Position numbers and translations under genes: made by a program. Shown piece by piece: positions 22,037 to 53,001 of a stretch of DNA of 64,000 nt; position 1 is the stretch's first letter; the number at the start of each line of letters is the position of its first letter. Source of the DNA: an uncultured Desulfobacterales bacterium (lineage in GTDB: Bacteria; Desulfobacterota; Desulfobacteria; Desulfobacterales; CAJINA01); assembly GCA_964647585.1 (NCBI GenBank), contig CAZYGG010000008.1, positions 2,643-66,642 on the forward strand, given 5' to 3'. The notes beneath the pieces are model-generated. The model was not told the DNA's origin, did no database searches, and worked only from the letters and a program-made list of their open reading frames with translations.

Positions 22037-22510
22037 ATGAAAAACGTTCTGACTGTTGGAAAAAAGGCCCCGGCATTCAAGCTGGAAGATAGTGACGGAA
22101 AGGTTACCGCCCTGGCGGATTTCAAAGGCAAATGGATGGTGCTTTATTTCTATCCCAAAGACAACACATCCGGCTGAACCAACGAAGCCAAAGATTTCAC
22201 GGGATTGAAATCAAAATTCAAAAAGGCCAACGCCGTCGTTATAGGCATCAGCCCCGATTCAGTCAAAACGCATACCAATTTCATGAAAAAGCATGATCTC
22301 GACCTTACCCTGCTCAGCGATCCTGAGCATACGGCCCTTACGGCCTATGGTGCCTGGCAGCTTAAAAAGATGTATGGCCGCGAATATATGGGCGTGGTCC
22401 GGTCAACCGTGCTGATCGACCCGGAGGGAACGGTCAGGCACACCTGGTCCAAAGTCAAGGTCAAGGGGCATGCGGATCAGGTATTGGAGAAACTGCGGGA
22501 ACTGAAATGA
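22037..22510 (+). CDS. bcp: BCP/PrxQ peroxiredoxin selenoprotein (Sec47, UGA 22175-22177)
   Basis: AAGGAG RBS; VLYFYPKDNTSG-U-TNEA equals the PxxxTxxC peroxidatic motif; in frame with track ORF 22205-22510; hairpin 22193-22212. Confidence 0.9.
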
Positions 22511-23957: not shown

Positions 23958-24311
23958 CTAATTCCAGTTAAGCTCTTTCTGCAGCCAGGCTTTCACGTCC
24001 CCTTCGGGTGCAAACACCCCCTTGAGGTTGCCGTATTCACCCTTGAAAACCTTCTCGATCCTGGCCGGCATCCGGATGGTAGCCATCTCTTCCGCCTCTT
24101 CCGAGTTCCGCCGCATGAGATAGATGACCGGCTCCTTCCAGGTATTGACAACGAAATAGTACGATTCATCGTCCTTGGATTTTATCAGGTTGCTGCCCAG
24201 GGCCGGATTATTGCCCCATTCCAAGTACATCGTCACCGCATCCTCCGGAGTCATATCCCAGCTGATGGCATTGACCAGGTCCATATTGTTTCTTATATCA
24301 TCAAGTGTCAT
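23958..24311 (-). CDS. DVU0772-family protein
   Basis: WDMTPEDAVTMYLEWGNN and SYYFVVNTW motifs; GAGGTG RBS before ATG 24311. Confidence 0.75.
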   Translation of the reverse strand: MTLDDIRNNMDLVNAISWDMTPEDAVTMYLEWGNNPALGSNLIKSKDDESYYFVVNTWKEPVIYLMRRNSEEAEEMATIRMPARIEKVFKGEYGNLKGVFAPEGDVKAWLQKELNWN

Positions 24312-24377
24312 CGTATCACCTCGCAAATAAGGGATAAAGTTTTTCATAATCTAAGCCCGCTGTGCTATTTGTCAAAA

Positions 24378-24393
24378 AGCAACAAGCATGCCA
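24378..24393 (-). promoter_or_regulatory. Sigma54-type promoter
   Basis: TGGCAT-GCTTG-TTGCT on the minus strand. Confidence 0.7.
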
Positions 24394-33584: not shown

Positions 33585-33803
33585 TCAATCCTTTCCGGGC
33601 CAGGGTTGATCCCGGTCAGCCACATGATAGCAAAACCGGTCCCACTCGAATTCCTTGAGGCTGATAGGGCACTTGAGCTTGACCTTCCTTGCCGTTACCC
33701 CAACGACCTCCCAGTCACCTTTGCGGGGACCGTCGGCGATATTGATCTTCTGGCCCGCCTCAAACGGAAAGGGGCTGAATATGTTTACCTTGTGCTGTGC
33801 CAT
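33585..33803 (-). CDS. Small hypothetical protein
   Basis: AAGGAG RBS; 72 aa; same strand as neighbours. Confidence 0.7.
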   Translation of the reverse strand: MAQHKVNIFSPFPFEAGQKINIADGPRKGDWEVVGVTARKVKLKCPISLKEFEWDRFCYHVADRDQPWPGKD

Positions 33804-33867
33804 TTCTACTCCTTACGATTTAACGGGCTCATTCTTGGATTAACGACTCCTGCCGGCGCTTTTACCC

Positions 33868-33958
33868 TGTCACTCTGAGCGAAGCGAAGAGTCCCTTTCA
33901 CGTTGAAGTTGTCTTACATTGTGGGGGATTCTTCGTCGCTGCACTCCTCAGGATGACA
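33868..33958 (+). repeat. 91-bp palindromic repeat family B, copy 4
   Basis: Same consensus and length. Confidence 0.85.
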
Positions 33959-34008
33959 GTAAAATCAAAAAAGTTATATGTTATCCGGGCTGTTTCCCGT
34001 TAAACGCA

Positions 34009-34830
34009 TCAAGTCTCACATAACAGCTGCCGGAGCCGCTCACTGAGAAACATGATTGATTCAATGTCCAGGTGGTCGGTTATGGTTTCGTCAAACAGGA
34101 ACTTGGCCATCGGTTCGAATCCGTCTTCCGGGTCTTCATCCCAGAACATCAGGGTGACCGGCACCCGGGGAAGGGGTTGAAAATAGAAATTCAGGCCGGA
34201 TGATTCCCGGTCATCGGTCCGTTCCTCGCCACCGATAGCCGCCGCCGACGCTTTTAGTTCGTCCGCCTTTCCCCGGAAACGTTGTATCAGGGGTGTCTCA
34301 ACCTGTTCGATCATCGACTTGATTTTTGAGACAGTGTTGGGGAACTCCACAAAGCCTTTCCATTTCCCGGAAGGCTCACGGCGTCCCCCCTGGGCCATGT
34401 GGTTGTAAATGAACACCTGTTCATAGCGGGTCAGTTCGGAACCATCTTTTTTACTGATTGAATCTGCATCTATGAAAAGGGCAGAGGTAAAATAGGGAAG
34501 TTCCAGGCAAATGGTCTCAGCACGGGTGCCCAAACGGCCCCCGATTCGGTCGGGCAGGTCTTCAATCCGCATGGATGTCGCTCTCTGGCGCGCCCACGCC
34601 AGTGCGTCGGCGGCATTATCCCGCTTGGTCCAGCGTCCCTCTTTGTATTGCTGTTCAAGTTCCGGTTTGCATTCGGCGAGCTGGTCCGCCTCCACATGGG
34701 GACACCCCCCGAGGTCATGTTTATCAGCGACCACTTTACTGGCAAACGCCAGGCAGGTGGGCGCCCCGCAATCACCGCAATTGGTCTTCGGCAACACATC
34801 ACGATAAAGATCTACCACGGAAAGCGCCAT
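34009..34830 (-). CDS. Fe-S domain plus DUF3786 protein
   Basis: LPKTNCGDCGAPTCLAFA..CP N-terminal domain; PLPRVPVTLMFW.D.ED..FD C-terminal domain. Confidence 0.85.
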   Translation of the reverse strand: MALSVVDLYRDVLPKTNCGDCGAPTCLAFASKVVADKHDLGGCPHVEADQLAECKPELEQQYKEGRWTKRDNAADALAWARQRATSMRIEDLPDRIGGRLGTRAETICLELPYFTSALFIDADSISKKDGSELTRYEQVFIYNHMAQGGRREPSGKWKGFVEFPNTVSKIKSMIEQVETPLIQRFRGKADELKASAAAIGGEERTDDRESSGLNFYFQPLPRVPVTLMFWDEDPEDGFEPMAKFLFDETITDHLDIESIMFLSERLRQLLCET

Positions 34831-34832
34831 AT

Positions 34833-35288
34833 CTACCACACCTCCGGATACCCGATATCCACGAAGGCCTTTTCCATTTTGTTTTTGTGCCCCTTTTCCA
34901 TGGTGGCCAAATCCTCAAAGACCTTCTTTTTATCAGGATCGTCACAGGCCGCCGCCATTTGCAGGTACTGGTTCATGGCGTCTTCCTCATTTTTCATGGC
35001 CAGGGCAATGGCATCGGCCGGTTTCATCTCCATGGAAAGCTCTGGCTTTTCAATCGTTTCGGCCACCTTGAAGTCAACCGAATCCCGGAAATACTGTTTG
35101 ATGCTCTCACTGTTAAGGATTTTTTCCAGAATCCGCTTGTGCCCCCTCTCGTCATCAGCCAGTTCGGCGAACATTTTCTTTAGATAAGGGTCTTCAACTT
35201 TATCCGACGCCTCCTGGTAAAACAGACTTGCTGCGATTTCCTCGCCTATGGCCATTTCGACAATTTTTTTATACTCCTGCAGTTCCAT
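34833..35288 (-). CDS. Ferritin-like (rubrerythrin family) protein
   Basis: DERGH and MEKGH ExxH motifs; start ATG 35288. Confidence 0.85.
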   Translation of the reverse strand: MELQEYKKIVEMAIGEEIAASLFYQEASDKVEDPYLKKMFAELADDERGHKRILEKILNSESIKQYFRDSVDFKVAETIEKPELSMEMKPADAIALAMKNEEDAMNQYLQMAAACDDPDKKKVFEDLATMEKGHKNKMEKAFVDIGYPEVW

Positions 35289-35378
35289 AACCTTCCCCCT
35301 TTCGAATGGCATCCGGGTTATCGATAGTTGTGCGGTGTATTTTCTGAAAAATGGTACTGATAAATATTGAGAAAAGAC

Positions 35379-35394
35379 TGCAATCTCCATGCCA
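35379..35394 (-). promoter_or_regulatory. Sigma54-type promoter
   Basis: TGGCAT-GGAGA-TTGCA on the minus strand. Confidence 0.7.
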
Positions 35395-35444
35395 CCCCGG
35401 GAACAATCCTGTTGCGCTCTCCAATTGATACCAGAGACCTTATC

Positions 35445-35460
35445 TGGTATGGGTTTTGCT
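35445..35460 (+). promoter_or_regulatory. Sigma54-type promoter
   Basis: TGGTAT-GGGTT-TTGCT. Confidence 0.6.
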
Positions 35461-35516
35461 ACATAAAAACCTCAGCCAGATCTAATATTACTAAAACCTA
35501 ATAAGTGAGGTCCCCC

Positions 35517-36356
35517 ATGCGTTGGAAACAGTTCTTTACCCCTGTGGAGTCCGTGGATTCCGGACAAGCCAGAGAGATGATGGCCAAAACCGCCACCGGT
35601 GACATGACGATTCTGGATGTCCGCCAGCCAAGCGAATACAGTGCCGGCCACATCCCCGGCGCAACCCTGATCCCCCTGCCCCAGTTAGGGGACCGGCTTT
35701 CGGAACTGGACCGGCAAAAGCCGCTGATGGTTTACTGAGCGGTCGGCGGCCGCAGCCGGGTTGCTGCGCAGATGCTGGCCGGGAAAGGCTTTGCGAATAT
35801 CTATAACCTCGCCGGGGGCATACGGGCTTTTGATGGTACTGCTGCGGTCGGTTCCCAGGACCTTGGCCTGGCTCTCTTCGCAGGCAAGGAATCCGGGCCG
35901 GAAGCACTGCTGGTAGCCTTTGGCCTGGAAACCGGCCTCAAGGAATTCTACGCCACCCAGGCAAATGCGGCCGCCGCTCCAGAAGTGAAGGCGCTGTTCA
36001 ACAAGTTGGGTAGCATTGAGGTAAAACACCAGGACAGGCTCGTTGAGGAGTACAACCGGCTTACCGGCAAAACCGCAACCCGGGAGGAACTGGAAACGCT
36101 GACATCCGGCCCGGATATGGAAGGCGGCCTCACTACGGAAGAATACATGAACCTTTTCAATCCTGATCTGGAATCGGTGGTGGATATCGTCTCGATCGCC
36201 ATATCCATCGAGGGCCAGGCCTTAGATCTTTACATGCGCGCTGCAGCGGACAGCAGTGATGAAGAGGGCCGCCATATGCTGACGCAAATGGCCGATGAGG
36301 AAAAAACCCATATGGCCCTGCTGGGAGATCTGCTGGATGAAGTATTGGCCACATGA
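35517..36356 (+). CDS. Rhodanese-ferritin/rubrerythrin fusion selenoprotein (Sec74, UGA 35736-35738)
   Basis: LDVRQPSEY..GHIPGA, VY-U-AVGGRS active loop, NLAGGI; track ORFs 35505 and 35772 share one frame; EVKH and EKTH; hairpin 35751-35768. Confidence 0.88.
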
Positions 36357-36441
36357 ACATAAGGTTGTATTTGGGTTCAGGGGTTTGCATTCACTCCCTC
36401 ACCGGGTACGGGGAACCGACAAGACTTCATTCGAGGACACT

Positions 36442-37548
36442 ATGCAAAAACGACTTGTTTTAATCGGCGCGGGGCATGCCCACATGGTCACGCTCAAGAA
36501 CCTGCAGCAGTTCGTGGAACGGGGATACGCGGTAACCGTCGTCGGCCCGTCAGCAGATCACTACTACTCGGGTATGGGGCCGGGCATGCTCGGTAAAACC
36601 TATAGACCGGGGGAGATCCGGTTTGCCGTAAAAAAGATGACCGAAACCAGGGGGGGAATATTCGTCACAGGCAAGGCCCAAAGCCTGGACCCGGACCGCA
36701 AGATTATCCGGCTGGAAGACGGACAGGAAATCCCCTACGATGTGGCCTCCTGCAACGCGGGCAGCTACGTCCCCGGCCTGGAAGGCCTGAATGAATCCGA
36801 GAACATCTTTGCCGTCAAACCCATCGAAAGGCTTCAGCAAGCCCAGAAAAAGATTATTCAGCTCGGTGAAAACGGATCCGGCCGCATCGCCATCATCGGC
36901 GGCGGCGCCTCGTCGGTGGAAGTGGCCGGCAACGTCGTAGCCCTGCTGCAAAAACACGGTCTCAAAGGTGTTTCGGTGAAGATCTTCGCCGGCAAAGGCC
37001 TAATGTCACGGTTCCCCGCCTGGATCGGCCGGCACGCGGAAAAATCCCTGTCCGCTCGGGGGGTAAAAATCCACAGAGGCAGCTACGTCTCAGGGATGGC
37101 CGGCGGCGAGGTCTCCCTGGAATCCGGCGAAACCCACCCGGCCGACCTGATCTTTCTGGCCCGGGGCGTAAAACCATCCCGGATGTTCGCTGACTCAAAC
37201 CTGCCCACCGGCCCTGACGGCGGCCTGCTGGTCAACCAATACCTGCAGTGCACCCAGTACCCGGAGCTTTTCGGGGGTGGCGACTGTATCTATTTTGAAG
37301 ACGATCCGCTGGACAAAGTGGGGGTCTACGCCGTGCGCCAGAACCCGGTCCTCTTTGCCAACCTCATGGCCGCCCTGGAAGGCAGCCCGCTGCAGCCCTT
37401 TGATCCGGGCGGCAACTACCTGCTCATTTTCAATCTCGGCGACGGCACCGGCATACTCAGCAAGGGATTCTGGCGTCTCACCGGCAAAATGGCCTTTAAA
37501 ATCAAGGATTACATCGACCGGAAATTCATAACGGCGTTTCAGGAGTAA
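36442..37548 (+). CDS. FAD-dependent pyridine nucleotide oxidoreductase (NDH-2 / SelD N-terminal domain-like)
   Basis: GAGHAH, YSGMGPG, GGGASSVE, GGGDC, KVGVYAVRQ, KDYIDRKF. Confidence 0.85.
   Translation: MQKRLVLIGAGHAHMVTLKNLQQFVERGYAVTVVGPSADHYYSGMGPGMLGKTYRPGEIRFAVKKMTETRGGIFVTGKAQSLDPDRKIIRLEDGQEIPYDVASCNAGSYVPGLEGLNESENIFAVKPIERLQQAQKKIIQLGENGSGRIAIIGGGASSVEVAGNVVALLQKHGLKGVSVKIFAGKGLMSRFPAWIGRHAEKSLSARGVKIHRGSYVSGMAGGEVSLESGETHPADLIFLARGVKPSRMFADSNLPTGPDGGLLVNQYLQCTQYPELFGGGDCIYFEDDPLDKVGVYAVRQNPVLFANLMAALEGSPLQPFDPGGNYLLIFNLGDGTGILSKGFWRLTGKMAFKIKDYIDRKFITAFQE
37390..37514 (+). repeat. Direct repeat copy 1 (3' part of the oxidoreductase gene)
   Basis: Matches 40181-40304 with 2 substitutions and a 1-nt indel. 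Confidence 0.9.
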
Positions 37549-37597: not shown

Positions 37598-40132
37598 ATG
37601 GAGCCTGTCTCCTATAAAACCAAGTTTGCCCTATTAGGCGCAGTGCTCGTTCCCTGCTTTGGCCAGATTGCCTTACATGGCACCGGTTATGAATATGACT
37701 TTCAGCGGTACCTGGTTCCCTTTTTTGTCGGTGCTATGGCCGGCGGCTTGATCGGCTTTATGAAAGATAAGTGGCTTCTATCAAATAAGGATCTGAACGC
37801 CACAAACGCCGCCCTGGAAAATAAGATCTACGAAAAAAATCAGGTGGAAAATGCGCTGCGGGAAAGCGAAACCACGCAACGTCTATTGATGGAAAATCTG
37901 CCTGCCGGTGCCATTGTTGTCGACCCGGTAACCCGCACTATTGAGAGCGCGAATGAAGCCGCCGCGGTGTTGTTCGGTGCTTCCCGGCATGAGATCATTG
38001 GGCATCGCTGCCACGCCTATATATGCCCTGCAGAAGAAGGGGCTTGTCCCATCTGTGATCTGGAACAGGAAGTAGACAATTCGGTACGGGAGATACTTTG
38101 CGCAGATGGTAGCCGGCGCCCAGTTCTTAAATCTGTTAAGCAGATACAAATACTCGGTCAAGAAAAACTACTGGAATGCTTTGTAGACATCACTGAACGT
38201 AAGCAGGTGGAAGAGGCGCTGCGGGAAAGTAAGGAATATCAGCAAAGCCTTTTCCGGGCAGCCCCAACGGGTATCGGGTTTGTTATCAATCGTGTTTTCC
38301 AGCAAGTTAACGAGCAGATTTGCGAAATGACGGGTTATTCTGAAGAGGAACTCGTTGGACAGAGTGCCAGGTTACTTTATCTAAATGACGAAGACTTCGA
38401 GTATGTGGGCCGGGAGACGTACAAGCAGATAAGCGAACATTGCACCGGAACTGTGGAGACACGCTGGAAACAAAAGGACGGCCGTACTATTGACGTTTTA
38501 CTCAGTTCTACCCCCATGGATCTCAACGACCTGTCAAAGGGAGTCACTTTCACTGCGCTTGATATCACCGAGCGCAAGCGGGCCGAAGAGGCCTTGCGTA
38601 CATTTCACGAAAAATTCCTCACCGTTTTGGACAGTATTGACGCTAACGTGTATGTGGCCGACATGGTTACCCACGAAGTACTATTTATGAATAAAAAGAT
38701 GGGTGAGGTTTTTGGCCGGGATATGGTTGGGAAATTGTGCTGGGAAGTTTTTAGAGGCGCGTCGGGCCCCTGCCGAGATTGCACCAATAATCAATTATTA
38801 GATGAAAAAGGAATGCCCGCAGAGGTTTGCACCTGGCATGGCAGAAATCCGATTACCGGGAAATGGTACATTAACCATGATCGCGCCATCGAGTGGGCAG
38901 ATGGGCGTCTGGTCAGACTCCAGGTAGCAACCGACATCACCGACCTCAAATTGATGGAACAACAGGTTCAGCAATCCCAAAAATTCGAGGCAATCGGAAC
39001 GCTTGCAGGCGGTATTGCCCACGATTTTAACAATCTATTAATGGGAATCCAGGGCAGGATTTCACTCTTAGCGGGAGAGCTCAAGTCACATTCGGCCCGG
39101 GAACATACCCACGCCATTGAGGACTACGTTCGCAGCGCAACTGACCTGACCAATCAGCTTTTAGGCTTGGCCCGGGGTGGAAAATACCAGGTCAAGCCCA
39201 TCGATTTAAATGCATTGATACGCAGCAGCGCAAACATGTTTGGGCGCACCAAAAAAGAAATCCGGATCTACACCGAAATAGATGACGCCCCTCTGTCCGT
39301 AGAGGTCGACCAGGGTCAGATCGAACAGGTTTTATTGAACTTGTATGTGAACGCCTGGCAGGCGATGCCGGAGGGCGGGGAGCTGCATTTAGCTACCCAG
39401 ATTGTAACGCTCGACGATTACTACGTTAAAGCATATAACGCAAAACCCGGGCGCTATGCAAAGGCATCCATAGCTGATACCGGGATCGGCATGGAGAAAA
39501 ATATACAACAGCAGGTTTTCGATCCTTTTTTCACGACCAAGGAAAAAGGTCGGGGGACTGGGTTGGGGTTGGCATCGGCCTATGGCATCATCAAGAATCA
39601 TGATGGCGTTATTACCGTAGACAGCAAAGTTGGACACGGAACCACATTCGCTATCTATCTGCCTTTGTCAGATAAAATGCCCCCCCAGGAAGTACCCGCA
39701 TATGAGGCCCTCATCAACGGTACGGAAAAACTTCTTCTGGTTGACGATGAAGCCATGATTCTCGAGGTCGCGCAGGCAATGCTGGAAAGATTAGGCTACC
39801 AGGTCTTAACCGCGGATAGTGGCCAGGAGGCATTAAATGTAATTCATAAAAGCGACGCTGAAATCGATCTGGTCATACTTGATCTCATTATGCCCGACCT
39901 TGATGGTGGCAAAGTGTTCGACCAGATTAAAGAAATTCACCCGGAAATACCGATCTTGCTTTCAAGCGGATATGCAATCAATGGCCAGGCTAATGCAATC
40001 ATGCAAAGAGGCTGCAACGGATTCATCCAGAAACCATTCAATATCGCAGCGCTTTCCCAAAAAGTTCGTGAAGTTCTGGATGGGGCCAAAAAACAGCTCA
40101 AAGACAGTGGGAACAAAAAGGATGACAGCTAA
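37598..40132 (+). CDS. Multi-PAS hybrid sensor histidine kinase with receiver domain
   Basis: Two N-terminal TM segments, three PAS domains, AHDFNN, NAWQAM, DTGIG, PFFTTK..GTGLGL, receiver VDDE..LDLIMP..KP. Confidence 0.93.
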   Translation: MEPVSYKTKFALLGAVLVPCFGQIALHGTGYEYDFQRYLVPFFVGAMAGGLIGFMKDKWLLSNKDLNATNAALENKIYEKNQVENALRESETTQRLLMENLPAGAIVVDPVTRTIESANEAAAVLFGASRHEIIGHRCHAYICPAEEGACPICDLEQEVDNSVREILCADGSRRPVLKSVKQIQILGQEKLLECFVDITERKQVEEALRESKEYQQSLFRAAPTGIGFVINRVFQQVNEQICEMTGYSEEELVGQSARLLYLNDEDFEYVGRETYKQISEHCTGTVETRWKQKDGRTIDVLLSSTPMDLNDLSKGVTFTALDITERKRAEEALRTFHEKFLTVLDSIDANVYVADMVTHEVLFMNKKMGEVFGRDMVGKLCWEVFRGASGPCRDCTNNQLLDEKGMPAEVCTWHGRNPITGKWYINHDRAIEWADGRLVRLQVATDITDLKLMEQQVQQSQKFEAIGTLAGGIAHDFNNLLMGIQGRISLLAGELKSHSAREHTHAIEDYVRSATDLTNQLLGLARGGKYQVKPIDLNALIRSSANMFGRTKKEIRIYTEIDDAPLSVEVDQGQIEQVLLNLYVNAWQAMPEGGELHLATQIVTLDDYYVKAYNAKPGRYAKASIADTGIGMEKNIQQQVFDPFFTTKEKGRGTGLGLASAYGIIKNHDGVITVDSKVGHGTTFAIYLPLSDKMPPQEVPAYEALINGTEKLLLVDDEAMILEVAQAMLERLGYQVLTADSGQEALNVIHKSDAEIDLVILDLIMPDLDGGKVFDQIKEIHPEIPILLSSGYAINGQANAIMQRGCNGFIQKPFNIAALSQKVREVLDGAKKQLKDSGNKKDDS

Positions 40133-40180
40133 TGACTGTCCAGTGAAACCACGCTGAACCCGGGTCTGGAAGATAAACCC

Positions 40181-40304
40181 CTGCAGCCCTTTGATCCGGG
40201 CGGCAACTACCTGCTCATTTTCAATCTCGGCGACGGTACCGGCATACTCGCAAGGGATTCTGGCGTCTCACCGGCAAAACGGCCTTTAAAATCAAGGATT
40301 ACAT
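40181..40304 (+). pseudogene. Direct repeat copy 2: frameshifted fragment of the oxidoreductase 3' end
   Basis: See 37390-37514; ends immediately before the cydD TTG. Confidence 0.85.
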
Positions 40305-42101
40305 TTGAAAGAATCATACGATCAAAGCACTGATGCGAAGACCGGGCTGCGCTGGCTGTTTAAACAACTAATGCCGGTAAAGGGTTGGATCGGGCTGTCC
40401 GTCGGGCTGGGTCTGGGCAGCGGTCTGCTGCTCATTGTACAGGCCGGATTTTTAGCACGCATTATCCACGGAGCGGTGGTCGACGGGAAGAGTCGGGAAA
40501 CACTCTGGCCATTTTTTGCGGCGCTTGTCGGCATTTACCTGGTCAGAGCGCTCCTCGCCTGGGGCCGTGAAGTCTCAGGCTTCGAGGCCAGTGCAAAAAT
40601 ACGACGGCAAGTCCGTTCAACCCTGATGGCCCATATCACCCGGCTCGGTCCGGCCTATGTGACCGGCCGGAATACCGGAGCCCTGGCCAGCACCGTTATG
40701 GAACAGGTGGAAGGGCTGCACGGTTTTTTTGCCCACTACCTCCCGCAAATGGCCCTGGCCATCATGATCCCCGCCGCCATTTTGACCTTTGTCTTTCCGG
40801 TCAGCTGGGCAGCCGGCGGTCTTCTCATGGTCACCGCCCCGTTGATTCCGTTTTTCATGGTACTGGTCGGCATGGGGGCGGAAAGTGTCAGTCAACGCAA
40901 CTTTCAGGCACTGTCACGCATGAGTGCTCACTTTCTGGATACACTGCAGGGCCTGCCTACCTTAAAATTGTTCTACAAAAGCCGTGATGCAGAAAAGACC
41001 GTTGCCCGGGTGTCACGCGACTATCGAAAACGGACCATGCGCGTGCTGCGTATCGCCTTTTTCTCTTCGGCGGTCCTGGAGTTTTTCAGCGCAATCGCCA
41101 TCGCCCTGGTCGCGGTATATCTCGGGATGACCTATCTGGGTTACTATCACTTCGGCACCTGGGGACAGACCCTGACCCTCTCCGGGGGAATTTTCATCCT
41201 GCTGCTGGCCCCTGAATTCTATCTGCCCCTCAGGGAGCTGGGCACCCATTACCACGCGCGGGCCGAGGCCGTCGGAGCCGCCCAGGAAATCCTCAAGGTA
41301 TTGGCTGTGCCGGTGCCGGGCGGCCCCGACAAACCGGTGGTTTTCGAACCATCCGACGCTGTCGCGCTCTGTTTCAAAGATGTACACCTGGCATATGACG
41401 GGGGCCGGCGGCCGGCGTTGAACGGCATCAGCTTCACAATGAACGCCGGAGAGAAACTCGCCCTGGTTGGCGAGAGCGGTGCCGGAAAGACAACCGTGCT
41501 CGATCTGCTGCTCGGGTTTCTCCAGCCAGACCAGGGACAGATAACGGCCAACGGGATATCCGCAGACCGCCTGGACCCGGCCAGCCGGCGCCAATCCATG
41601 TCCTGGATCGGTCAGGATCCCACCCTTTTTTACGGAAGCATCCGGGACAACATCCGCATGGGGCGGCCGGATGCCTCGGAGGGTGCCGTGGTTGACGCTG
41701 CCCGGTTGGCGCGAGTGCTGGATTTCACCCAGGCCCTTTCCCAGGGCCTGGATACGGTGATCGGGGAGCGTGGGTACGGCCTGTCCCGGGGGCAAGCCCA
41801 GCGCATCGCACTGGCACGGGCCTTTTTAAAACGGGCACCGGTCCTGCTGCTGGACGAACCCACCGCCGGCCTGGACGTGGAAAATGAACATCTGGTTCTG
41901 GGGGCTTTGGAAAAATTGTCTGCCAGCCGAACCGTGCTGACCGTGACCCACCGCATGGCGGATGTGGAAAAGGCTGATCGGATTCTGGTCATGTCCAGGG
42001 GCCGGATTGTGGAACAGGGCACCTTTGCCGGATTGAGCGCGGCCGGTGGCGTGTTCTACCGGTTGGCGAACCAGCTAAATGAGGAGGAGGGGCATGGCTA
42101 G
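40305..42101 (+). CDS. cydD: Thiol reductant/heme ABC exporter CydD
   Basis: LLAPEFYLPLRELGTHYHA, GESGAGKT, LSRGQAQR, LLDEPT. Confidence 0.93.
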   Translation: MKESYDQSTDAKTGLRWLFKQLMPVKGWIGLSVGLGLGSGLLLIVQAGFLARIIHGAVVDGKSRETLWPFFAALVGIYLVRALLAWGREVSGFEASAKIRRQVRSTLMAHITRLGPAYVTGRNTGALASTVMEQVEGLHGFFAHYLPQMALAIMIPAAILTFVFPVSWAAGGLLMVTAPLIPFFMVLVGMGAESVSQRNFQALSRMSAHFLDTLQGLPTLKLFYKSRDAEKTVARVSRDYRKRTMRVLRIAFFSSAVLEFFSAIAIALVAVYLGMTYLGYYHFGTWGQTLTLSGGIFILLLAPEFYLPLRELGTHYHARAEAVGAAQEILKVLAVPVPGGPDKPVVFEPSDAVALCFKDVHLAYDGGRRPALNGISFTMNAGEKLALVGESGAGKTTVLDLLLGFLQPDQGQITANGISADRLDPASRRQSMSWIGQDPTLFYGSIRDNIRMGRPDASEGAVVDAARLARVLDFTQALSQGLDTVIGERGYGLSRGQAQRIALARAFLKRAPVLLLDEPTAGLDVENEHLVLGALEKLSASRTVLTVTHRMADVEKADRILVMSRGRIVEQGTFAGLSAAGGVFYRLANQLNEEEGHG

Positions 42102-43890
42102 CCGCTACCAGGAGCTCGGCCCGTTTATCCGCCTGTTAAAATCCCACCGGAAAAGGATGCTGGTGGGCATCCTTCTAGGACTGGTAGCCGTTGGTTCTGC
42201 CGTGGGCCTGTTGTCATTGGCGGGCTGGTTCCTGACTGCTGCAGCTATTGCGTCACTATCCGCTGCCGGCACCTGGCAGTTCAATTTCTTTTTGCCGAGT
42301 ATCGGAGTCCGCCTGTTTGCCTTTGGTCGCACCCTGGCACGCTATGGCGAACGGGTCGTCAACCACGATACGACTTTCAGAATACTTGAAAACCTCCGGG
42401 TGTGGTTCTACCGTCATATCGAACCACTGGCGCCGGCCTGCCTGTCTAGATATCGCAGCGGCGACATTCTCAACCGGCTCGTAGAAGACATCGACACCCT
42501 GGACAACCTTTATGTACGCGTCCTGTCTCCTTCGGCCGCCTTCCTGGCTGTGTCTGTGCTGCTTTGCGGGCTTCTATGGCTGTTCGATCCGGCCATCGCG
42601 GTTGTCGCCCTGGCGTTTCTGGCGGTTGCCGGCGGTATGGTTCCGTATGCCGCCGCATGGCTCGGTGCGGAAACCGGTCGCAGACTTGGTCGCCAGAGCG
42701 CCGGGCTGCGGGTGCGCATCGTGGAGGGACTGCAGGGGCTGCCGGAACTGCTGGTGTACGGGGCGCAGGTGCGCCACCTGGAAGCGATCCGCCAGGATGC
42801 CGATGAGCTCATGGCCGCCCAGCGCCGCATGAGCCACATCACAGGATTCACCAGTACGCTGATTACCCTCCTATCCGGGCTTGCCGTCACTTTCACGCTG
42901 TATCTCGGCGTGGACCGCATCGATATGGCCGCCGAGTATGGCGGGGCTGTGCTCACCCTCGTGGCCCTGGCTGTCATGGCTTCGTATGAGGCCGTCTGGC
43001 CGCTGCCCACAGCCTTTCAATTTTTGGGTAGAACCCGTGAGGCCGGCCGCCGTCTGGTGGAAATCGTAGCGGCGGAGCCGGCTGTACGCTACCCGGGGAA
43101 GTCCGGATCCGTTCCGAAGCAATCCGGTTTAACATTCGAAAATGTCAGCTTTCGCTATGCTGAAAAAGCCCCCCTTGTCCTGGATAGCCTGAATTTTCAG
43201 GCGGAGGCAGGGCGCCGGGTAGCCGTATTGGGGACAACGGGTTCAGGTAAAACCACGCTCGTGAATCTGCTGGTAAGGTTCTGGGAACCAACTGCGGGCC
43301 GCATCTGCATCGACGGTGTGGATATACGGTCACTGGGTGAAGCGGACCTGCGCCGGAGTATTTCCGTGGTGTCCCAGCAAGCTCACATTTTCAGCACCAG
43401 CCTGCGGAACAACCTGCGCATGGCCCGCGCCGATGCCACGGATGCCGACCTGAGAGAAGCACTGGCGGCGGCCCAACTGCTGTCGTTCGTCGACAGCCTG
43501 CCGGACGGCCTGGACACCTGGGTCGGAGAGGCGGGTAAGTTGCTTTCCGGCGGGCAGGCCCGGCGGCTGGCCGTGGCCCGGGCCTTTGTTCACGATGCGC
43601 CGATCTGGGTCTTGGATGAACCTACCGAAGGGCTGGACCGGGTGACGGAAAGGCGGCTGATGCAGGCCATAATGGAACGGACAGTGGGGAAAACCGTGGT
43701 GCTGATCACCCATCGAATGGTCGACATTCACCGCATGGACGAATCCATCCTGATCGAAAACGGCCGCATCGCCGCCCGGGGACGCCACGCCGCCCTTCTG
43801 CCACACAACCCGAGATACCGACGCTTCTGGGGGTACCCTCCGACAGAATCCCCACCTGCCGGTAAGAATGATCAAACGCTCTCCAGCTAA
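42094..43890 (+). CDS. cydC: Thiol reductant/heme ABC exporter CydC
   Basis: RTLARYGERVVNHD, GTTGSGKT, LSGGQARR; ATG 42094 with GGAGG RBS. Confidence 0.93.
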   Translation: MASRYQELGPFIRLLKSHRKRMLVGILLGLVAVGSAVGLLSLAGWFLTAAAIASLSAAGTWQFNFFLPSIGVRLFAFGRTLARYGERVVNHDTTFRILENLRVWFYRHIEPLAPACLSRYRSGDILNRLVEDIDTLDNLYVRVLSPSAAFLAVSVLLCGLLWLFDPAIAVVALAFLAVAGGMVPYAAAWLGAETGRRLGRQSAGLRVRIVEGLQGLPELLVYGAQVRHLEAIRQDADELMAAQRRMSHITGFTSTLITLLSGLAVTFTLYLGVDRIDMAAEYGGAVLTLVALAVMASYEAVWPLPTAFQFLGRTREAGRRLVEIVAAEPAVRYPGKSGSVPKQSGLTFENVSFRYAEKAPLVLDSLNFQAEAGRRVAVLGTTGSGKTTLVNLLVRFWEPTAGRICIDGVDIRSLGEADLRRSISVVSQQAHIFSTSLRNNLRMARADATDADLREALAAAQLLSFVDSLPDGLDTWVGEAGKLLSGGQARRLAVARAFVHDAPIWVLDEPTEGLDRVTERRLMQAIMERTVGKTVVLITHRMVDIHRMDESILIENGRIAARGRHAALLPHNPRYRRFWGYPPTESPPAGKNDQTLSS

Positions 43891-43945
43891 GCGTAAACCC
43901 GCAAAACAGCGAAAAAAAATTCTTGACAGATTGGCGGCCAAATTA

Positions 43946-43970
43946 TATTGGACTAAAAGTATCCTATTTA
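43946..43970. promoter_or_regulatory. Possible Rrf2 autoregulatory site downstream of TTGACA (43923)
   Basis: Imperfect palindrome TATTGGACTAAAAGTATCCTATTTA. Confidence 0.35.
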
Positions 43971-44116
43971 TCTTGTATATTATGTTTGATTAGAGTGTTT
44001 TCATAATTTCGTGGCCCGACTGATCGGGCTTTGTTTCGATACATTACCTGTAGATTGAGTGAAAAGATGGGCATCCGGGGTGTTGTGAATTTGTCGTATA
44101 AATATGTGGGATATAC

Positions 44117-44554
44117 ATGCGTCTAACAAGAGCCGGTGAATATGCGGTGCGCTGCGCACTCTACCTCTCCTATCAGGGCGAAGGTGTGACCACGAGCCGC
44201 AGAGAAATCGCCCGGGTCATGGACATCCCGAATCAATTCCTGAGCAAAATTGCCCCGCAGCTGGCCAAAGCGCAAATTATCGAAATCATTCAGGGGGCCA
44301 AGGGCGGCTACCGGCTGATCATATCCCCGGACAAGCTGACCATGCTGGACGTGGTGGAAGCTGTTATCGGCGAGATTTTTCTGAACGACTGCGTCCTGCG
44401 GCCCGAATCGTGTCAACGCGCCCCAGCTTGCTCGGCCCACCAGGTCTGGGACAAAGCTCGGAATCAGCTCCGAAACACTCTCAGGCAGACCAGTTTCAAG
44501 CAAATGCTCGAAGATGAGAGCTGCGGCCAGGATCAACTGAAAACGCCGCGATAA
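44117..44554 (+). CDS. Rrf2-family transcriptional regulator
   Basis: EYAVR, QGAKGGYRL, C-X5-C-X5-C-X2-H putative Fe-S ligands. Confidence 0.92.
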   Translation: MRLTRAGEYAVRCALYLSYQGEGVTTSRREIARVMDIPNQFLSKIAPQLAKAQIIEIIQGAKGGYRLIISPDKLTMLDVVEAVIGEIFLNDCVLRPESCQRAPACSAHQVWDKARNQLRNTLRQTSFKQMLEDESCGQDQLKTPR

Positions 44555-44651
44555 CGACCGGCGCTGTATAAATTCCGAAACAGGAAAAAATTTTTATTGT
44601 ATATCGTTCCGCAAAACGAACGGAATAAATTATCGTCAAGGAGGGAAGTTT

Positions 44652-46016
44652 ATGGATGCGCTACTTTTATCGAGAATCCAGTTTGCGACCACAACTATGT
44701 TCCATTTCCTGTTTGTCCCTTTGACCCTGGGACTCTCGTTTATAATGGCATACATGGAGACCAAATATGTCAAAACAGGGGACGAGATGTACCTGAAGAT
44801 GACCAAATTCTGGGGCAAACTGTTTCTCATAAATTTTGCCGTGGGGGTGGTCACCGGCATCACCCTCGAGTTTCAGTTTGGAACCAACTGGTCTCTCTAC
44901 TCCGCCTATGTAGGGGATATTTTTGGTTCCCTGCTGGCAATTGAGGCAACCGCCACATTTTTCCTGGAATCCACCATGATCGGTGTCTGGATTTTCGGGT
45001 GGAAAAAGCTGTCGAAAAAGGCGCACGCCGCAGTGATGTGGCTGGTGTTTTTGGGCTCCAACCTTTCGGCCGTATGGATATTGATCGTCAACGCCTGGAT
45101 GCAGAGTCCCGTCGGCTTTACCATGCGCGACGGCAGAGCGGAGCTCGTCGATTTTGGTGCCGTCATCACCCAAAAATTTGCCATTGTTAAGTTCATCCAC
45201 ACAGCCAGCTCCGCTTACACCCTGGCGGCTTTCTTCGTCATGGGTATCAGCGCCTACCATCTGCTCAAGAAAAAGAATGTCGAATTCTTTACCCGTTCGT
45301 TTCGCATCGGACTGGGTTTCGCCCTCATCTTTTCTTTGACAGTTTTCATCATGGGGGACTTGAACGGCGTGGTGGTCGGTGAAAAACAACCGACCAAACT
45401 GGCAGCCATGGAGTCTCTCTGGGAAACCCAGAGAAAAGCGCCGGTTTACATGTTTGCATGGCCGGACCCGGAAAACGAGCGCAATGCCGTTGAAATCGGG
45501 GCCATTCCCGGTCTGCTCAGCTTTCTGATCTTTCACGACATCAATGCAGAGGTCCGCGGTCTCAATGACTTCCCCAAAGATGAACGCCCGCCAGTCCTGC
45601 TGACATCCTTTGCCTTCAAGGGCATGGTGGGCATCGGGGTAATTTTAATCCTGCTGCCCATAATCGGCTGGATTAAACGGAAAAAACTGCTTGAAAACCC
45701 ACTGTATCTGAAGATCATGATGTTTGCCATCCCATTGCCCTATCTTGCGATCCAGCTGGGTTGGATCGTGACTGAATTCGGCCGCCAGCCCTGGATCGTC
45801 TACGGCCTGATGAAGACTTCGCAGGGGGTTTCGCCCGTGCCCCCCCACCAGGTGTTTATTTCCCTGGGCGGTTTTATTCTGGTATACAGCATCCTGGGTC
45901 TGGCAGGGTTTTCCCTTATTACCAAATATGCCAAGCAGGGACCGGATCCCGATAGCGAAGATGCGGCGGATGATGCCATCGCCGGCGATGGAGACGCGCA
46001 ACCGGCAGTGTCCTGA
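44652..46016 (+). CDS. cydA: Cytochrome bd quinol oxidase subunit I
   Basis: FHFLFVPLT, EFQFGTNW, QPTKLAAME, EFGRQPW. Confidence 0.96.
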   Translation: MDALLLSRIQFATTTMFHFLFVPLTLGLSFIMAYMETKYVKTGDEMYLKMTKFWGKLFLINFAVGVVTGITLEFQFGTNWSLYSAYVGDIFGSLLAIEATATFFLESTMIGVWIFGWKKLSKKAHAAVMWLVFLGSNLSAVWILIVNAWMQSPVGFTMRDGRAELVDFGAVITQKFAIVKFIHTASSAYTLAAFFVMGISAYHLLKKKNVEFFTRSFRIGLGFALIFSLTVFIMGDLNGVVVGEKQPTKLAAMESLWETQRKAPVYMFAWPDPENERNAVEIGAIPGLLSFLIFHDINAEVRGLNDFPKDERPPVLLTSFAFKGMVGIGVILILLPIIGWIKRKKLLENPLYLKIMMFAIPLPYLAIQLGWIVTEFGRQPWIVYGLMKTSQGVSPVPPHQVFISLGGFILVYSILGLAGFSLITKYAKQGPDPDSEDAADDAIAGDGDAQPAVS

Positions 46017-46089
46017 ACCGATACCAGCGACCAGCTAAAGCGTAAGCTAACAACAATAATGATAACTATGAGAATAGTAGGAGAATAAA

Positions 46090-47106
46090 ATGGCTTTACA
46101 AACAACATGGTTCTTTCTTTGGGGACTCATTTGGGCGCTCTTTTTCATGACCGGCGGTTACGACCTCGGTATCGGCAGTCTTTACCCGTTCCTTGGCAAA
46201 ACCGAGCAGGACAAACGGATGATGATCAATGCCAAAGGCCCCCTGTGGGACGGTAATCAGGTGTGGCTGCTCACAGCGGGCGGGGTGACATTTGCCGCCT
46301 TCCCGCTAGTATACGCCACCATGTTTTCAACCCTGTATGCCGCCTTGATGTTGATCCTTTTCGCACTGATCATTCGGGGGGTTTCCTTTGAATTTCGCCA
46401 TCAACTCGATGATCCCCGCTGGACCAAGGTCTGGGACACCTGTATTTTCATCGGCAGTATCGCGCCGGCCATTCTTTTCGGTGTGGCGTTCGCCAATATT
46501 TTTCAAGGCATCCCCTTCGACGGAAAGGGTATTTACCAGGGTACGCTGTTTACACTTTTGAATCCTTACGGCCTGCTGGGCGGCGTACTGTTTCTGCTGC
46601 TGTTCATGCAGCACGGCGCATTGTGGCTGGCCATCAGAACCACCGGCGATCTTCAAAAGCGGGCCGTAGGCACTGCCAAGATCCTGTGGCCGGTGCTGCT
46701 GGTGGTTGCCGTGATTTTCCTGATAGCCAGCTGGTTTGCCACCAACCTGTATGAAAACTATCTGGCCCACCCGGCATTTTTCCTGGTCATTGTTCTGGCG
46801 GTAGCCGGGCTCCTCCTGGCCAGGCTGTTTGTGGCCAAGCAGGCCTATTTCAAAGCCTGGTTCGCCTCGGCCCTGACCATCATCGGCTGCACATTTTTCG
46901 GCGTGGTCGGGTTGTTCCCGAGCCTGTTTCCATCGAGCATCAACCCGCGGTTCAATTTGACCGCGTTCAATGCCTCGTCCAGCCCGCTGACGCTGAAGAT
47001 CATGTTGACGGTGGTTGTTATATTCGTACCCATCGTGCTTGCATATCAGATCTGGGCTTACAATCTGTTTAAAACCAAGGTGGAAAAAGAAGACCTGGTC
47101 TACTAA
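46090..47106 (+). CDS. cydB: Cytochrome bd quinol oxidase subunit II
   Basis: GYDLGIG, GPLWDGNQVW, RGVSFEFR. Confidence 0.96.
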   Translation: MALQTTWFFLWGLIWALFFMTGGYDLGIGSLYPFLGKTEQDKRMMINAKGPLWDGNQVWLLTAGGVTFAAFPLVYATMFSTLYAALMLILFALIIRGVSFEFRHQLDDPRWTKVWDTCIFIGSIAPAILFGVAFANIFQGIPFDGKGIYQGTLFTLLNPYGLLGGVLFLLLFMQHGALWLAIRTTGDLQKRAVGTAKILWPVLLVVAVIFLIASWFATNLYENYLAHPAFFLVIVLAVAGLLLARLFVAKQAYFKAWFASALTIIGCTFFGVVGLFPSLFPSSINPRFNLTAFNASSSPLTLKIMLTVVVIFVPIVLAYQIWAYNLFKTKVEKEDLVY

Positions 47107-51529: not shown

Positions 51530-51982
51530 TCAGTTCCCTCCCGCGAGATAATTAAGATGCCGCTCTATTTCCGGCTTTGGGGGGGCTCCGGGAATCGTGT
51601 TCACCAGGCGGCCACCGTTGAAAAACAGCAGGGTGGGCACACTTAAAACATTGAACCGCGATGAAATCAGCGGGTTCTGGTCGACATTCAGCTTGGCGAT
51701 TTTTACAACACCGGCAAATTCCGAGGCCAACTGGTTCAGTATCGGGGCCATCTGTTTGCAGGGGCCGCACCAGGGCGCCCAGCAATCCAGCATCACCGGC
51801 CCGGGGAAAGCGGTAATTTCCTCGTTGAAGGTCGCATCCGTCACCGTGAGCGGACCGGTCGCGGCCGACGGCAGGGATGCCTGGCATTTGCCGCACACCG
51901 GCTTGTCGGCAAGCCGTTCCCCTGGCACCCGGTTGCGGGTTCCACACTTGTTGCATCGCAAAATTCTATCTCCAGTTCCCAT
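51530..51982 (-). CDS. trxC: Thioredoxin 2 with zinc finger
   Basis: CNKC...CGKC plus WCGPC. Confidence 0.92.
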   Translation of the reverse strand: MGTGDRILRCNKCGTRNRVPGERLADKPVCGKCQASLPSAATGPLTVTDATFNEEITAFPGPVMLDCWAPWCGPCKQMAPILNQLASEFAGVVKIAKLNVDQNPLISSRFNVLSVPTLLFFNGGRLVNTIPGAPPKPEIERHLNYLAGGN

Positions 51983-52063
51983 TTGTCCTCCCGGTTCAGA
52001 AGTCGCAAGTTTTCCGCGGACGGGTTGCCGCTCACGCCGGGCAACCGGTCTGGCTGATACAAA

Positions 52064-52110
52064 TACAAATTACATGCCATATGTATTATTTTTTTGGCAT
52101 AAGGTTTGCG
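52064..52110. promoter_or_regulatory. Back-to-back sigma54-type promoters
   Basis: Plus strand TGGCAT-AAGGT-TTGCG (52095-52110); minus strand TGGCAT-GTAAT-TTGTA (52064-52079, weaker). Confidence 0.6.
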
Positions 52111-52191
52111 TAGAAAATGCCCATGAGTCTATCCGGCAACAACCCGATAGACAATACTCTCTAACCAACTTATGAACGCGGGAGGTTTAAA

Positions 52192-52398
52192 ATGGCAAAG
52201 AAACGGTATAAGATCAAATCGGCCTGTCCCCAGTGCGGATGCAGTTATCTCACCACCCTGTCTGCCGAGGAGATAAAGGCTAAATACCCGGATGTTGAGA
52301 ATGTTCATCTCGAGTGCGGCGAATGCATGCTCGAGTATGAAACTAAAATGGCCGAAGCCTGCCCCGAATGGGATGACGAATGCAAATTAAAAGAGTAA
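52192..52398 (+). CDS. Small Cys-rich zinc-ribbon-like protein
   Basis: GGAGG RBS; CPQCGC, CGEC, C-X6-C. Confidence 0.75.
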   Translation: MAKKRYKIKSACPQCGCSYLTTLSAEEIKAKYPDVENVHLECGECMLEYETKMAEACPEWDDECKLKE

Positions 52399-52524
52399 AC
52401 AGATAGTTACAACTAATTGATTCCTATATAATTTTACTTGAAACACCCCGATACATTGTGCCATAATAACCGATCAGTACCGGTCTCATCAAATTATACA
52501 TGTTTTCAGGAAAGGAACCGATCA

Positions 52525-53001
52525 ATGAGTTACGATTTTAACGCAGACGACATTTTTGAAATGGCCGAACAAATGGAACGCAACGGGGCAACCTTTTACC
52601 GTGACGCCGCCAGTTCGGTCGATGATAGCGCAATCAAAGAGTTCCTCCTGGAATTCGCGGCCATGGAGGACGAACACGAGAAAACATTCAGCGCACTAAG
52701 GAAGGAATTGACCGCGGCTGAAAAGACCCCGACGGTTTTTGACCCCAACAACGAATCAGCCCTGTACTTGAAAGCCCTGGCCGACACCCGGGTGTTTTTT
52801 AAGAAAGAAATCGACACTTCGACTGTCGAAGGTATTTTCAAGAGTGCCATTACAGCTGAAAAAGACTCCATCGTCTTCTACCTGGGTATGAAAGACCTCG
52901 TGCCGGGAGCCCTTGGCAAAGACAAAATGGATGGCATTATAAAAGAGGAAATGGGGCACATTAAGGTTTTAAGCCAGAAGCTCGCCGCGCATAAAAAGTA
53001 A
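52525..53001 (+). CDS. Ferritin-like (rubrerythrin family) protein
   Basis: MEDEH and EEMGH motifs; AAGGA RBS. Confidence 0.85.
   Translation: MSYDFNADDIFEMAEQMERNGATFYRDAASSVDDSAIKEFLLEFAAMEDEHEKTFSALRKELTAAEKTPTVFDPNNESALYLKALADTRVFFKKEIDTSTVEGIFKSAITAEKDSIVFYLGMKDLVPGALGKDKMDGIIKEEMGHIKVLSQKLAAHKK

Follow-up and report, generated by a model that had tools for sequence, protein, structure and literature searches.

Rhodaneses with selenocysteine (Sec) are known from selenoprotein catalogues, which list them in five forms as predicted selenoproteins (PMC13188914, PMC9312934 and PMC1976440, in the parts of these texts that are accessible). Here we describe a gene in which such a rhodanese is joined to a di-iron domain of the erythrin type. 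The gene lies on a stretch of 64,000 nucleotides (nt) of DNA from an uncultured Desulfobacterales bacterium (GenBank assembly GCA_964647585.1, contig CAZYGG010000008.1, positions 2,643 to 66,642), which as a whole we call the window and to whose first letter all coordinates refer unless another contig is named. By its domain and by the motif U74-A-V-G77, the protein fits the 'form 2, PF00581, UxxG' of PMC13188914, as far as the accessible text permits the assignment. According to the same partial text, the UxxG Sec-rhodaneses also consist of a single PF00581 domain and are common in Deltaproteobacteria/Thermodesulfobacteriota; the Sargasso 'form 4' rhodanese is of the COG2897 type (PMC1088965, accessible part). 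The accessible catalogue texts do not mention the di-iron domain, and the words 'ferritin' and 'diiron' occur 0 times in that of PMC13188914; 'rubrerythrin' likewise occurs 0 times in the selenoprotein papers searched for it. Our literature search found no paper treating the rhodanese-di-iron fusion or its TIGR03169-type partner, and where rhodanese, rubrerythrin and fusion are found together in the accessible parts of texts, the terms occur separately. Databases label the cysteine (Cys) forms 'rhodanese-related sulfurtransferase/rubrerythrin'. Judged by sequence, the selenoprotein class is one already catalogued, and the two-gene unit formed by the fusion gene and a flavoprotein gene is a widespread and uncharacterised one.

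The closest described systems share parts of this architecture. The NADH-dependent persulfide reductase Npsr from Shewanella loihica (3nta/3nt6) and CoADR-RHD / coenzyme A (CoA)-persulfide reductase (3icr, 8a56) likewise bring together a flavoprotein of the pyridine-nucleotide-disulfide-oxidoreductase (PNDR) fold and a rhodanese. However, in these enzymes the rhodanese forms one chain with the flavoprotein, and the flavoprotein has a catalytic Cys of its own and bound CoA, whereas here the flavoprotein is separate, NDH-2-like and without a redox Cys, and it is a di-iron domain that shares a chain with the rhodanese. The same genome also contains the classical Npsr/CoADR-RHD layout, as an open frame of 580 amino acids (aa) with a PNDR and a rhodanese domain (C53:19139-20602, minus strand).

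Genes for persulfide dioxygenase-rhodanese fusions often stand beside a gene for an SQR-fold flavoprotein. These fusions (BpPRF 5ve3, 3tp9 and the CstB-like 3r2u) resemble the protein described here in that they, too, combine a rhodanese with a non-haem iron, oxygen-reactive domain. They differ in that theirs is a mono-iron metallo-beta-lactamase fold, while ours is a di-iron four-helix bundle, with the order of the domains reversed and in anaerobic hosts. Rubrerythrins and erythrins (PF02915; 2fzf, 1vjx, 2qqy and symerythrin 3sid) have the same four-helix E, ExxH, E, ExxH ligands. However, the FeS4 rubredoxin-like domain of canonical rubrerythrin is missing from the fusion protein, and its nearest structures are structural-genomics proteins without an assigned function.

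A selenocysteine rhodanese joined to a di-iron site

The fusion gene (35517-36356, plus strand, stop codon included) runs from an ATG at 35517, with GAGG 8 nt 5' of it, to a TGA stop at 36354-36356, and contains one further in-frame TGA, at 35736-35738. With this codon translated as Sec, the product has 279 aa, in which Pfam finds a Rhodanese domain at residues 19-105 (PF00581, E 6.8e-20, 71.8 bits) and, in the same frame, a Rubrerythrin domain at residues 129-271 (PF02915, E 1.9e-8, 35.2 bits). The TGA is codon 74, which aligns with an invariant Cys and specifies the catalytic residue in the rhodanese loop U-A-V-G-G-R-S; its surroundings read LMVY-U-AVGGRS, and the loop V-Y-U-A-V-G-G-R-S-R is of the sulfurtransferase type. 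An earlier note on this DNA, made from the letters alone, had placed a UGA at the rhodanese active site, in frame with a ferritin-like domain carrying two ExxH motifs, in a protein devoid of Cys. Translation and domain search agree with it on all these points: the 279 residues include no Cys, and the motifs are E168-x-x-H171 and E262-x-x-H265. The di-iron ligands form an E/ExxH/E/ExxH four-helix set (E138, E168, H171, E232, E262, H265) that is invariant in 57 aligned sequences, the query and 56 homologues, and so are G77, G78, R79, S80 and R81 of the rhodanese loop. A rubredoxin-like Cys4 domain is not present in the fusion protein, which has no RUBY_RBDX match and no Cys. We therefore read it, from its domains and motifs, as a predicted single-domain sulfurtransferase-type rhodanese in which Sec replaces the catalytic Cys, joined to a complete four-helix di-iron site.

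The model of the fusion protein has a mean predicted local distance difference test (pLDDT) score of 78 and a predicted TM-score (pTM) of 0.78, with the linker at residues 108-120 below 50. A search with the whole protein found no solved structure with both domains, the matches covering one domain each. For the rhodanese domain the best structural match is Npsr 3nt6 (Z 16.3, rmsd 1.7, 95 aa, 33% identity), and Npsr 3nta is also found by sequence (E 2.4e-14); CoADR-RHD, CoA-persulfide reductase and the persulfide dioxygenase-rhodanese fusions 3tp9 and 5ve3 are the other top matches of this part. The bundle matches ferritin-like di-iron proteins at Z 15-16 (2fzf with Z 15.9, 2qqy, 1vjx). NCBIfam holds no model specific for the fusion; the best of its models for rhodanese selenoproteins, NF041203, reaches 34.7, with a cut-off of 115.

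UGA as a selenocysteine codon

Searching a clustered protein collection with the fusion protein gave 1847 matches among 8000 candidates scored. The nearest of these (78-93% identity) are annotated as 'rubrerythrin' proteins of 194-203 aa, a length that we take to be the gene caller's product of a TGA form. Proteins of ~276 aa with both domains follow at 53-58% identity to the fusion protein, and in all full-length homologues aligned (56 of 56) column 74 is Cys. In public annotation the gene is thus split or shortened, and this selenoprotein of many sulfate reducers is under-counted.

Within the same order, 111 of 201 genomes contain relatives of the fusion gene. The codon at site 74 was read by script from several sets of loci, which overlap, as they come from one genome collection; kinship among the loci is present in all counts, and the sequences are not independent. 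The 30 best loci divide into 15 with TGA and 15 with TGC/TGT. Among 42 loci with flanks the motif was located in 41, with TGA in 22 and TGC/TGT in 19, and was not found in the remaining one; among 80 named loci the site is TGA in 33, Cys in 45 and unassigned in 2. Homologues with neither Cys nor Sec at the site, which the earlier note had named as a finding that would speak against it, did not turn up: next to the uniformly Cys-bearing proteins, every one of the 41 loci with the motif has TGA, TGC or TGT. An automated flag for internal stops was rejected as a count of Sec forms, since the site reads TGC in L022, which was flagged.

Upstream of the TGA, the 73 residues are conserved equally well in both forms, with 61% identity to the window's protein in Sec forms and 60% in Cys forms. 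In a maximum-likelihood tree of 41 proteins, parsimony counts 8 changes between Sec and Cys (bootstrap range 8-9), well-supported branches force at least 3 of them, and two supported sister pairs of Sec and Cys forms fall within one family. Sec and Cys forms of the protein thus interchange in this tree. In all 19 genomes with a Cys form, selD was found. RNA-library contigs of relatives from two sediment studies (90-99% alike) include one that spans the place of the UGA (35515-36035) and another that joins the fusion and flavoprotein genes, with DNA carry-over possible for both; the promoter region 35331-35451 has no cover among the relatives' RNA-library contigs, which proves nothing.

A SECIS-type (selenocysteine insertion sequence) hairpin with a 6-base-pair (bp) stem CGCAGC/GCTGCG and the loop CGGGTT starts 12 nt after the UGA (35751-35768, plus strand; arms at 35751-35756 and 35763-35768). 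The earlier note had pointed to this hairpin and to a similar loop, CGGGAT, in a bcp-type gene, and both are as it described them. The hairpin overlaps the codons of R-S-R-V-A-A. Since Sec and Cys forms alike conserve these amino acids, any test of the hairpin rests on synonymous positions. In the upper helix 92.4% of cells are paired in the 22 Sec forms as compared to 71.9% in the 19 Cys forms. The 6-bp stem is paired at 6/6 positions in 13 Sec forms, at 5/6 in 8 and at 4/6 in 1, while 3 of the 19 Cys forms have it completely paired. At 19-30, an A-U pair is found in 21 of 22 Sec forms versus 5 of 19 Cys forms (Fisher p 6.8e-6, with kin that are not independent). This pair requires the Ala codon GCT, which is rare in the organism's own long open reading frames (ORFs; 11% of Ala codons), and is thus retained despite codon preference. 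Compensatory double changes from CG to AU occur at two pairs, in two sequences each, and one of them costs an exchange of Ala for Ser.

The genome has the machinery for Sec incorporation, with SelA (612 bits), SelB (75.4 bits) and two SelD genes (384 and 377 bits), each of the latter with a TGA. Its selenoproteome is large, comprising, besides the two Sec-SelD, a Sec-Prx, several Sec-rhodaneses and PrdB, and other TGA genes of the genome bear similar hairpins. One of these selenoprotein genes lies within the window and codes for a Bcp-type peroxiredoxin with the motif T-S-G-U (22037-22510, plus strand; AhpC-TSA E 5.8e-40; TGA at 22175-22177), which fits the 'Prx (Bcp) TxxU' class in the accessible part of the catalogue. 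Its hairpin, GATTTCA-CGGGAT-TGAAATC, follows 15 nt after the TGA at about 22193-22212.

Some observations tell against decoding of the UGA as Sec. A tRNA-Sec was not found in the assembly, the best match to RF01852 having 45.5 bits against a cut-off of 47. Folded singly, the hairpin is unexceptional (76 nt, z 0.49; 139 of 200 shuffles fold as well), and a candidate lower helix (columns 5-13 with 38-46) was dropped as not Sec-specific, with 73% paired in Sec and Cys forms alike. We take the missing tRNA-Sec as a gap rather than as counter-evidence, since the assembly is in 147 contigs and, though 95% complete, has only 28 tRNAs detectable by ARAGORN; tRNA genes thus seem to be under-assembled in this genome. 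A 'tRNA-SeC' that ARAGORN reported on C45 was not accepted, as its 74-nt structure is poor and it lies next to a genuine tRNA-Glu. For the hairpin, the support comes from the comparison between Sec and Cys forms, not from the fold of the hairpin alone. An Rfam scan of the whole window at the gathering threshold gave no match and reported no SECIS family, which carries little weight.

If the TGA were instead a stop, the locus would be a broken gene or would make two polypeptides, one of 73 aa and one of about 194 aa starting at Met86. The 194-203 aa that public gene callers give for the nearest relatives would suit such a split, as would the lack of a tRNA-Sec. However, a TGA sits exactly at the catalytic codon in 22 of the 41 loci, where the parts before and after it are both conserved and share one frame, and the hairpin is selectively conserved, with compensatory changes. 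In addition, half of the fold and the active-site loop would be missing from the 73-aa fragment, and the machinery for Sec (SelA, SelB and two SelD) is present. We consider this alternative exceedingly improbable. The sequence comparisons instead indicate, as the earlier note had proposed, that one gene gives rise to a predicted selenoprotein of 279 aa, with UGA-74 decoded as Sec with the aid of the hairpin 12 nt downstream.

Other rhodanese genes with TGA occur elsewhere in the genome. A tandem pair with the motif T-U-K-L-S-H-K-S is present in identical copies at C54:15277-16167 and C30:9918-10808. A further rhodanese gene (C16:37916-38215) has two TGAs in Y-U-M-G-Y-R-U, a U-x4-U arrangement like that of the catalogued TsoB form.

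A conserved unit with an NDH-2-like flavoprotein

Directly downstream of the fusion gene lies the gene of a 368-aa NDH-2-like flavoprotein (36442-37548, plus strand; Pfam Pyr_redox_2). We compared 40 related loci together with flanks of about 7 kb. In 34 of them the flavoprotein gene directly follows the fusion gene, one of the six loci without it ending at a contig edge, and in the named set it does so in 62 of 77 loci with room. The genes on the other side are far less constant: a divergent rubrerythrin-like gene is found in 7 of 40 loci and a DUF3786 gene in 2 of 40, both of the same genus. The earlier note had correctly described a ferritin-like and an Fe-S/DUF3786 gene on the divergent side (a 151-aa rubrerythrin-like protein and a protein with PF04060 and DUF3786), but the divergent sigma54 module that it had placed around the fusion gene does not hold as a conserved unit. 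The neighbour counts across loci point to a smaller one, which consists of the fusion gene and the gene for the NDH-2-like flavoprotein.

This unit is found widely. When clustered at 50% identity, it amounts to 230 clusters (E <= 1e-30); 539 loci in species-representative genomes are confirmed, and its carriers include Thermodesulfobacteriota, Candidatus Scalindua and Neomarinimicrobiota. In a protein atlas, the clusters with both domains come mostly from Thermodesulfobacteriota, and a natural Cys homologue (P0016) gave only the family's own clusters. The unit links sulfane-sulfur handling, non-haem di-iron chemistry and the family of SelD-fused flavoproteins, and is relevant to anaerobes at oxic/sulfidic boundaries. 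The cultured Desulfosarcina alkanivorans PL12 (L170), whose genome is complete, has the same layout with Sec, which makes the function directly testable.

The model of the flavoprotein (pLDDT 89) is most similar in fold to NDH-2, namely YjlD and the enzyme of Caldalkalibacillus (C. thermarum), with TMq 0.87-0.89, followed by SQR (0.82-0.85) and then by ferredoxin reductases (0.72-0.76). C282, which lies in the GGGDC motif for flavin adenine dinucleotide (33 of 33 sequences), is the one Cys conserved in the flavoprotein, which has no redox-active Cys. Lacking a catalytic Cys, the flavoprotein requires an external acceptor. As the earlier note had supposed, it resembles the N-terminal part of SelD fusions: TIGR03169 'Nterm_to_SelD' aligns end to end (2-365 of 365). 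The score of 248.2 bits, however, lies below the curated cut-off of 310, and the gene is neither fused nor adjacent to selD in its own genome.

This family relationship raises the possibility that the unit supplies selenium, with a perselenide borne on Sec/Cys74 and reduced by the SelD-type flavoprotein to selenide for selenophosphate synthetase. Fusions of NADH-dehydrogenase-like proteins to SelD are the commonest SelD fusions (PMC4561486, accessible part), the flavoprotein belongs to their family TIGR03169, and the organism has a large selenoproteome. However, the match falls short of the family cut-off, both selD copies are on other contigs (C2 and C56, the window being on C8), and the neighbouring genes have to do with stress and sulfur rather than being sel genes. 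Co-occurrence with selD is uninformative, as 185 of the order's 201 genomes have selD, with or without the fusion. Moreover, the di-iron domain would be left without a role. We thus regard a function in selenium supply as highly unlikely.

The flavoprotein also resembles ferredoxin and rubredoxin reductases (BphA4, 3fg2), as would be expected if the pair were a rubrerythrin-type NAD(P)H peroxidase or oxygen reductase. In that case the flavoprotein would reduce the di-iron site, which in turn would reduce H2O2 or O2, and the rhodanese would be a relay or sensor that handles no sulfur. That Rubrerythrin is the best Pfam match of the C-terminal domain, with invariant ligands, and that the locus lies in an oxygen-defence island, in this genus with cytochrome bd genes directly downstream, fits such an enzyme. 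It does not account for the loop C/U-x-x-G-G-R-S-R, which is invariant and of the sulfurtransferase type. In addition, thiols and selenols are ill suited to relaying single electrons, and the nearest rhodanese domains handle persulfide. A peroxidase or oxygen reductase of this kind is, in our estimation, unlikely.

Possible function of the pair

As the best overall explanation we propose that the Sec fusion protein and the flavoprotein form a unit acting on sulfane sulfur under oxygen or sulfur stress, a reading to which we would give a little less than an even chance. A sulfane-sulfur enzyme is favoured because the kin of the rhodanese handle persulfide, because the flavoprotein needs an external acceptor, because the exchange of Sec and Cys is typical of redox enzymes, and because of the gene context, which in other genomes includes DrsE_2 sulfur-carrier-like and TrxR/MerA-like genes. 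More specifically, the pair could be a two-component redox enzyme for sulfane sulfur that defends against reactive sulfur and oxygen species, which we put forward tentatively, as possible rather than probable. Sec74 would take over a sulfur atom (selenium being less likely) from persulfide, polysulfide or thiosulfate to form Se-S(H), and the flavoprotein would shuttle electrons between the fusion protein and either NAD(P)H or the quinone pool. As a second redox site, the di-iron centre would hand these electrons on or react with O2 or H2O2. Such an enzyme may protect a sulfide-producing anaerobe from reactive sulfur and oxygen species upon exposure to oxygen. In the window's genome, the operon would now be under sigma54 control, in an oxygen-defence island beside cytochrome bd.

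Not everything fits this proposal. The flavoprotein neighbour is missing from 5 of 39 loci with room, and from 15 of 77 in the named set. The plus-strand sigma54 element upstream of the fusion gene is absent from the two loci of the same genus, L046 and L047, and from the other 38, and in the Desulfosarcina-like loci the fusion gene is preceded by an extended -10-like element TGTGTATAAT or by TGTGTATACT. Furthermore, the analogy to Npsr does not explain what the di-iron domain would do.

In a further reading, the chalcogen bound to the protein, as Se-S or S-S on Sec/Cys74, would itself be the substrate of the di-iron centre, and the NDH-2-like reductase would recharge this centre. This would be a new type of enzyme, which we consider rather unlikely. 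It would be built in the manner of a multicomponent di-iron oxygenase but act on protein-bound persulfide, which it might oxidise with O2; alternatively, it might deliver sulfur, iron and electrons together for Fe-S repair. Sec would then have been chosen in about half of the lineages for its ability to withstand oxidants.

Fe-S repair or assembly may also be considered by itself, with the Sec/Cys providing sulfane sulfur, the di-iron site iron, and the flavoprotein the two electrons that convert S0 to sulfide. A protein with this function would resemble the di-iron RIC/YtfE proteins. All three parts, namely a sulfur carrier, a labile di-iron site and a reductase, would be explained in this way, and the exchange between Sec and Cys suits a nucleophile that works under oxidative stress. 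The context is rich in genes for Fe-S proteins and oxidative stress, including NifU/NifS (53286-55552) and the divergent Fe-S/DUF3786 gene. However, neither NifU/NifS nor DUF3786 (2 of 40 loci) is a conserved neighbour, profile and structure searches revealed no homology to RIC/YtfE or to scaffold proteins, and the set of ligands is that of catalytic erythrin and rubrerythrin sites. We thus think it unlikely that the pair is a donor for Fe-S repair. The functions suggested by the earlier note, Fe-S repair and the detoxification of selenite or polysulfide, are guesses; none of the results contradicts its more general idea of a system that couples S/Se transfer to di-iron chemistry.

Genomic context of the unit

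What the window adds to the conserved unit is a sigma54 site before the selenoprotein gene, a recent insertion of a kinase gene, the direct adjacency to cydDCAB and a cultured organism with the same layout. On the divergent side, the first gene encodes an erythrin-like (rubrerythrin-like) di-iron protein of 151 aa without a rubredoxin domain (34833-35288, minus strand; Pfam Rubrerythrin 4.7e-21). That it might be a duplicate of the di-iron domain of the fusion was rejected (BLASTP E 0.14). The idea that this gene is restricted to loci with Sec forms was likewise abandoned: it held for 7 of 7 in the first set, but in the named set the gene goes with 2 Cys forms and 1 Sec form. The next gene, for a 276-aa protein with an N-terminal PF04060 Fe-S domain and DUF3786 (34009-34839, minus strand; DUF3786 4.9e-40, FeS 2.3e-13), overlaps the stop of the rubrerythrin-like gene by 7 nt and in the named set is seen in L170 and L146. 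At the end of this string of genes is a conserved ORF of 72 aa (33585-33803, minus strand) without a Pfam or NCBIfam match. Of the 7 loci with the divergent gene, 6 contain a relative of this ORF (tblastn, 56-76% identity), and so do L170, L136 and L150; together these are L046, L047, L048, L059, L075, L079, L170, L136 and L150. There it lies on the same strand as, and beyond, the sigma54-driven rubrerythrin-like gene, at varying distance. In the spacer at 33803-34009, a long imperfect inverted repeat, gagcgaagcgaagagtccc ... gggattcttcgtcgctgcactc, can be seen by eye and could be a terminator or a repeat element. In loci outside the genus (L048, L059, L072, L075, L079) the rubrerythrin-like gene is followed by an LPG_synthase_C-like gene (PF09924), with a DrsE_2 (PF13686) gene next in 3 of these 5 and TrxR/MerA-like genes nearby; in the window's genus and in Desulfosarcina alkanivorans, DUF3786 is found in that position.

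The consensus TGGYAYN5TTGCW for a sigma54-type -24/-12 element has 3 exact matches in the window as compared to 0.26 expected, a number that 0 of 100 shuffles reach, and rpoN is present in the genome. Two of the matches lie inside the 229-nt intergenic region, each facing its own gene: TGGTATGGGTTTTGCT (35445-35460, plus strand) precedes the start codon of the selenoprotein gene by 57 nt, and TGGCATGGAGATTGCA (35379-35394, minus strand) drives, by its position, the divergent rubrerythrin-like gene. The minus-strand element is conserved: it is identical in L046 and L047, all 7 loci that have the divergent gene agree with the consensus at 10-11 of its 11 positions, and the element occurs likewise in the Desulfosarcina-like L170, L136 and L150. 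This distribution indicates that the minus-strand element is the putative sigma54 promoter of the rubrerythrin-like gene, and that the plus-strand site is specific to the window's genome. No gene for a sigma54 activator was seen near the locus, the only one in the window lying at a distance of 32 kb (2089-3441). An 8-bp inverted repeat, ATACCAGA-N7-TCTGGTAT (35428-35450, plus strand), overlaps the -24 part of the plus-strand site; it may serve as an operator or belong to the leader, and is not conserved in L046 and L047. The third exact match, TGGCATGCTTGTTGCT (24378-24393, minus strand), is upstream of a 129-aa ORF (23958-24347) without a Pfam match.

Downstream of the flavoprotein gene, and outside the conserved unit, lies a gene for a PAS/HisKA/HATPase/REC hybrid histidine kinase (37598-40132, plus strand; Pfam). 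It is bracketed by a direct repeat of ~140 nt (37375-37514 and 40166-40304, 93-98% identical), which is the 3' end of the flavoprotein gene, with the second copy behind the kinase gene and directly before cydD. In L046, from the same genus, cydD directly follows the flavoprotein gene, with no kinase gene between them. Given the repeat and this kinase-free locus, the kinase gene looks like a recent insertion accompanied by a duplication.

By its gene content, the window as a whole is an oxygen-defence island. Genes for defence against oxygen and oxidants are found at 3584-5554, 15822-20112, 40305-47106 and 51530-61358. Besides the genes discussed above, the window encodes a hybrid-cluster protein, AhpF-like and VTT-MerA-like proteins, the Sec-Prx, cydDCAB, Trx2, NifU/NifS and an FMN reductase, as well as another rubrerythrin-like protein, a rubrerythrin with RUBY_RBDX (56356-56931), a desulfoferrodoxin and a flavodiiron protein.

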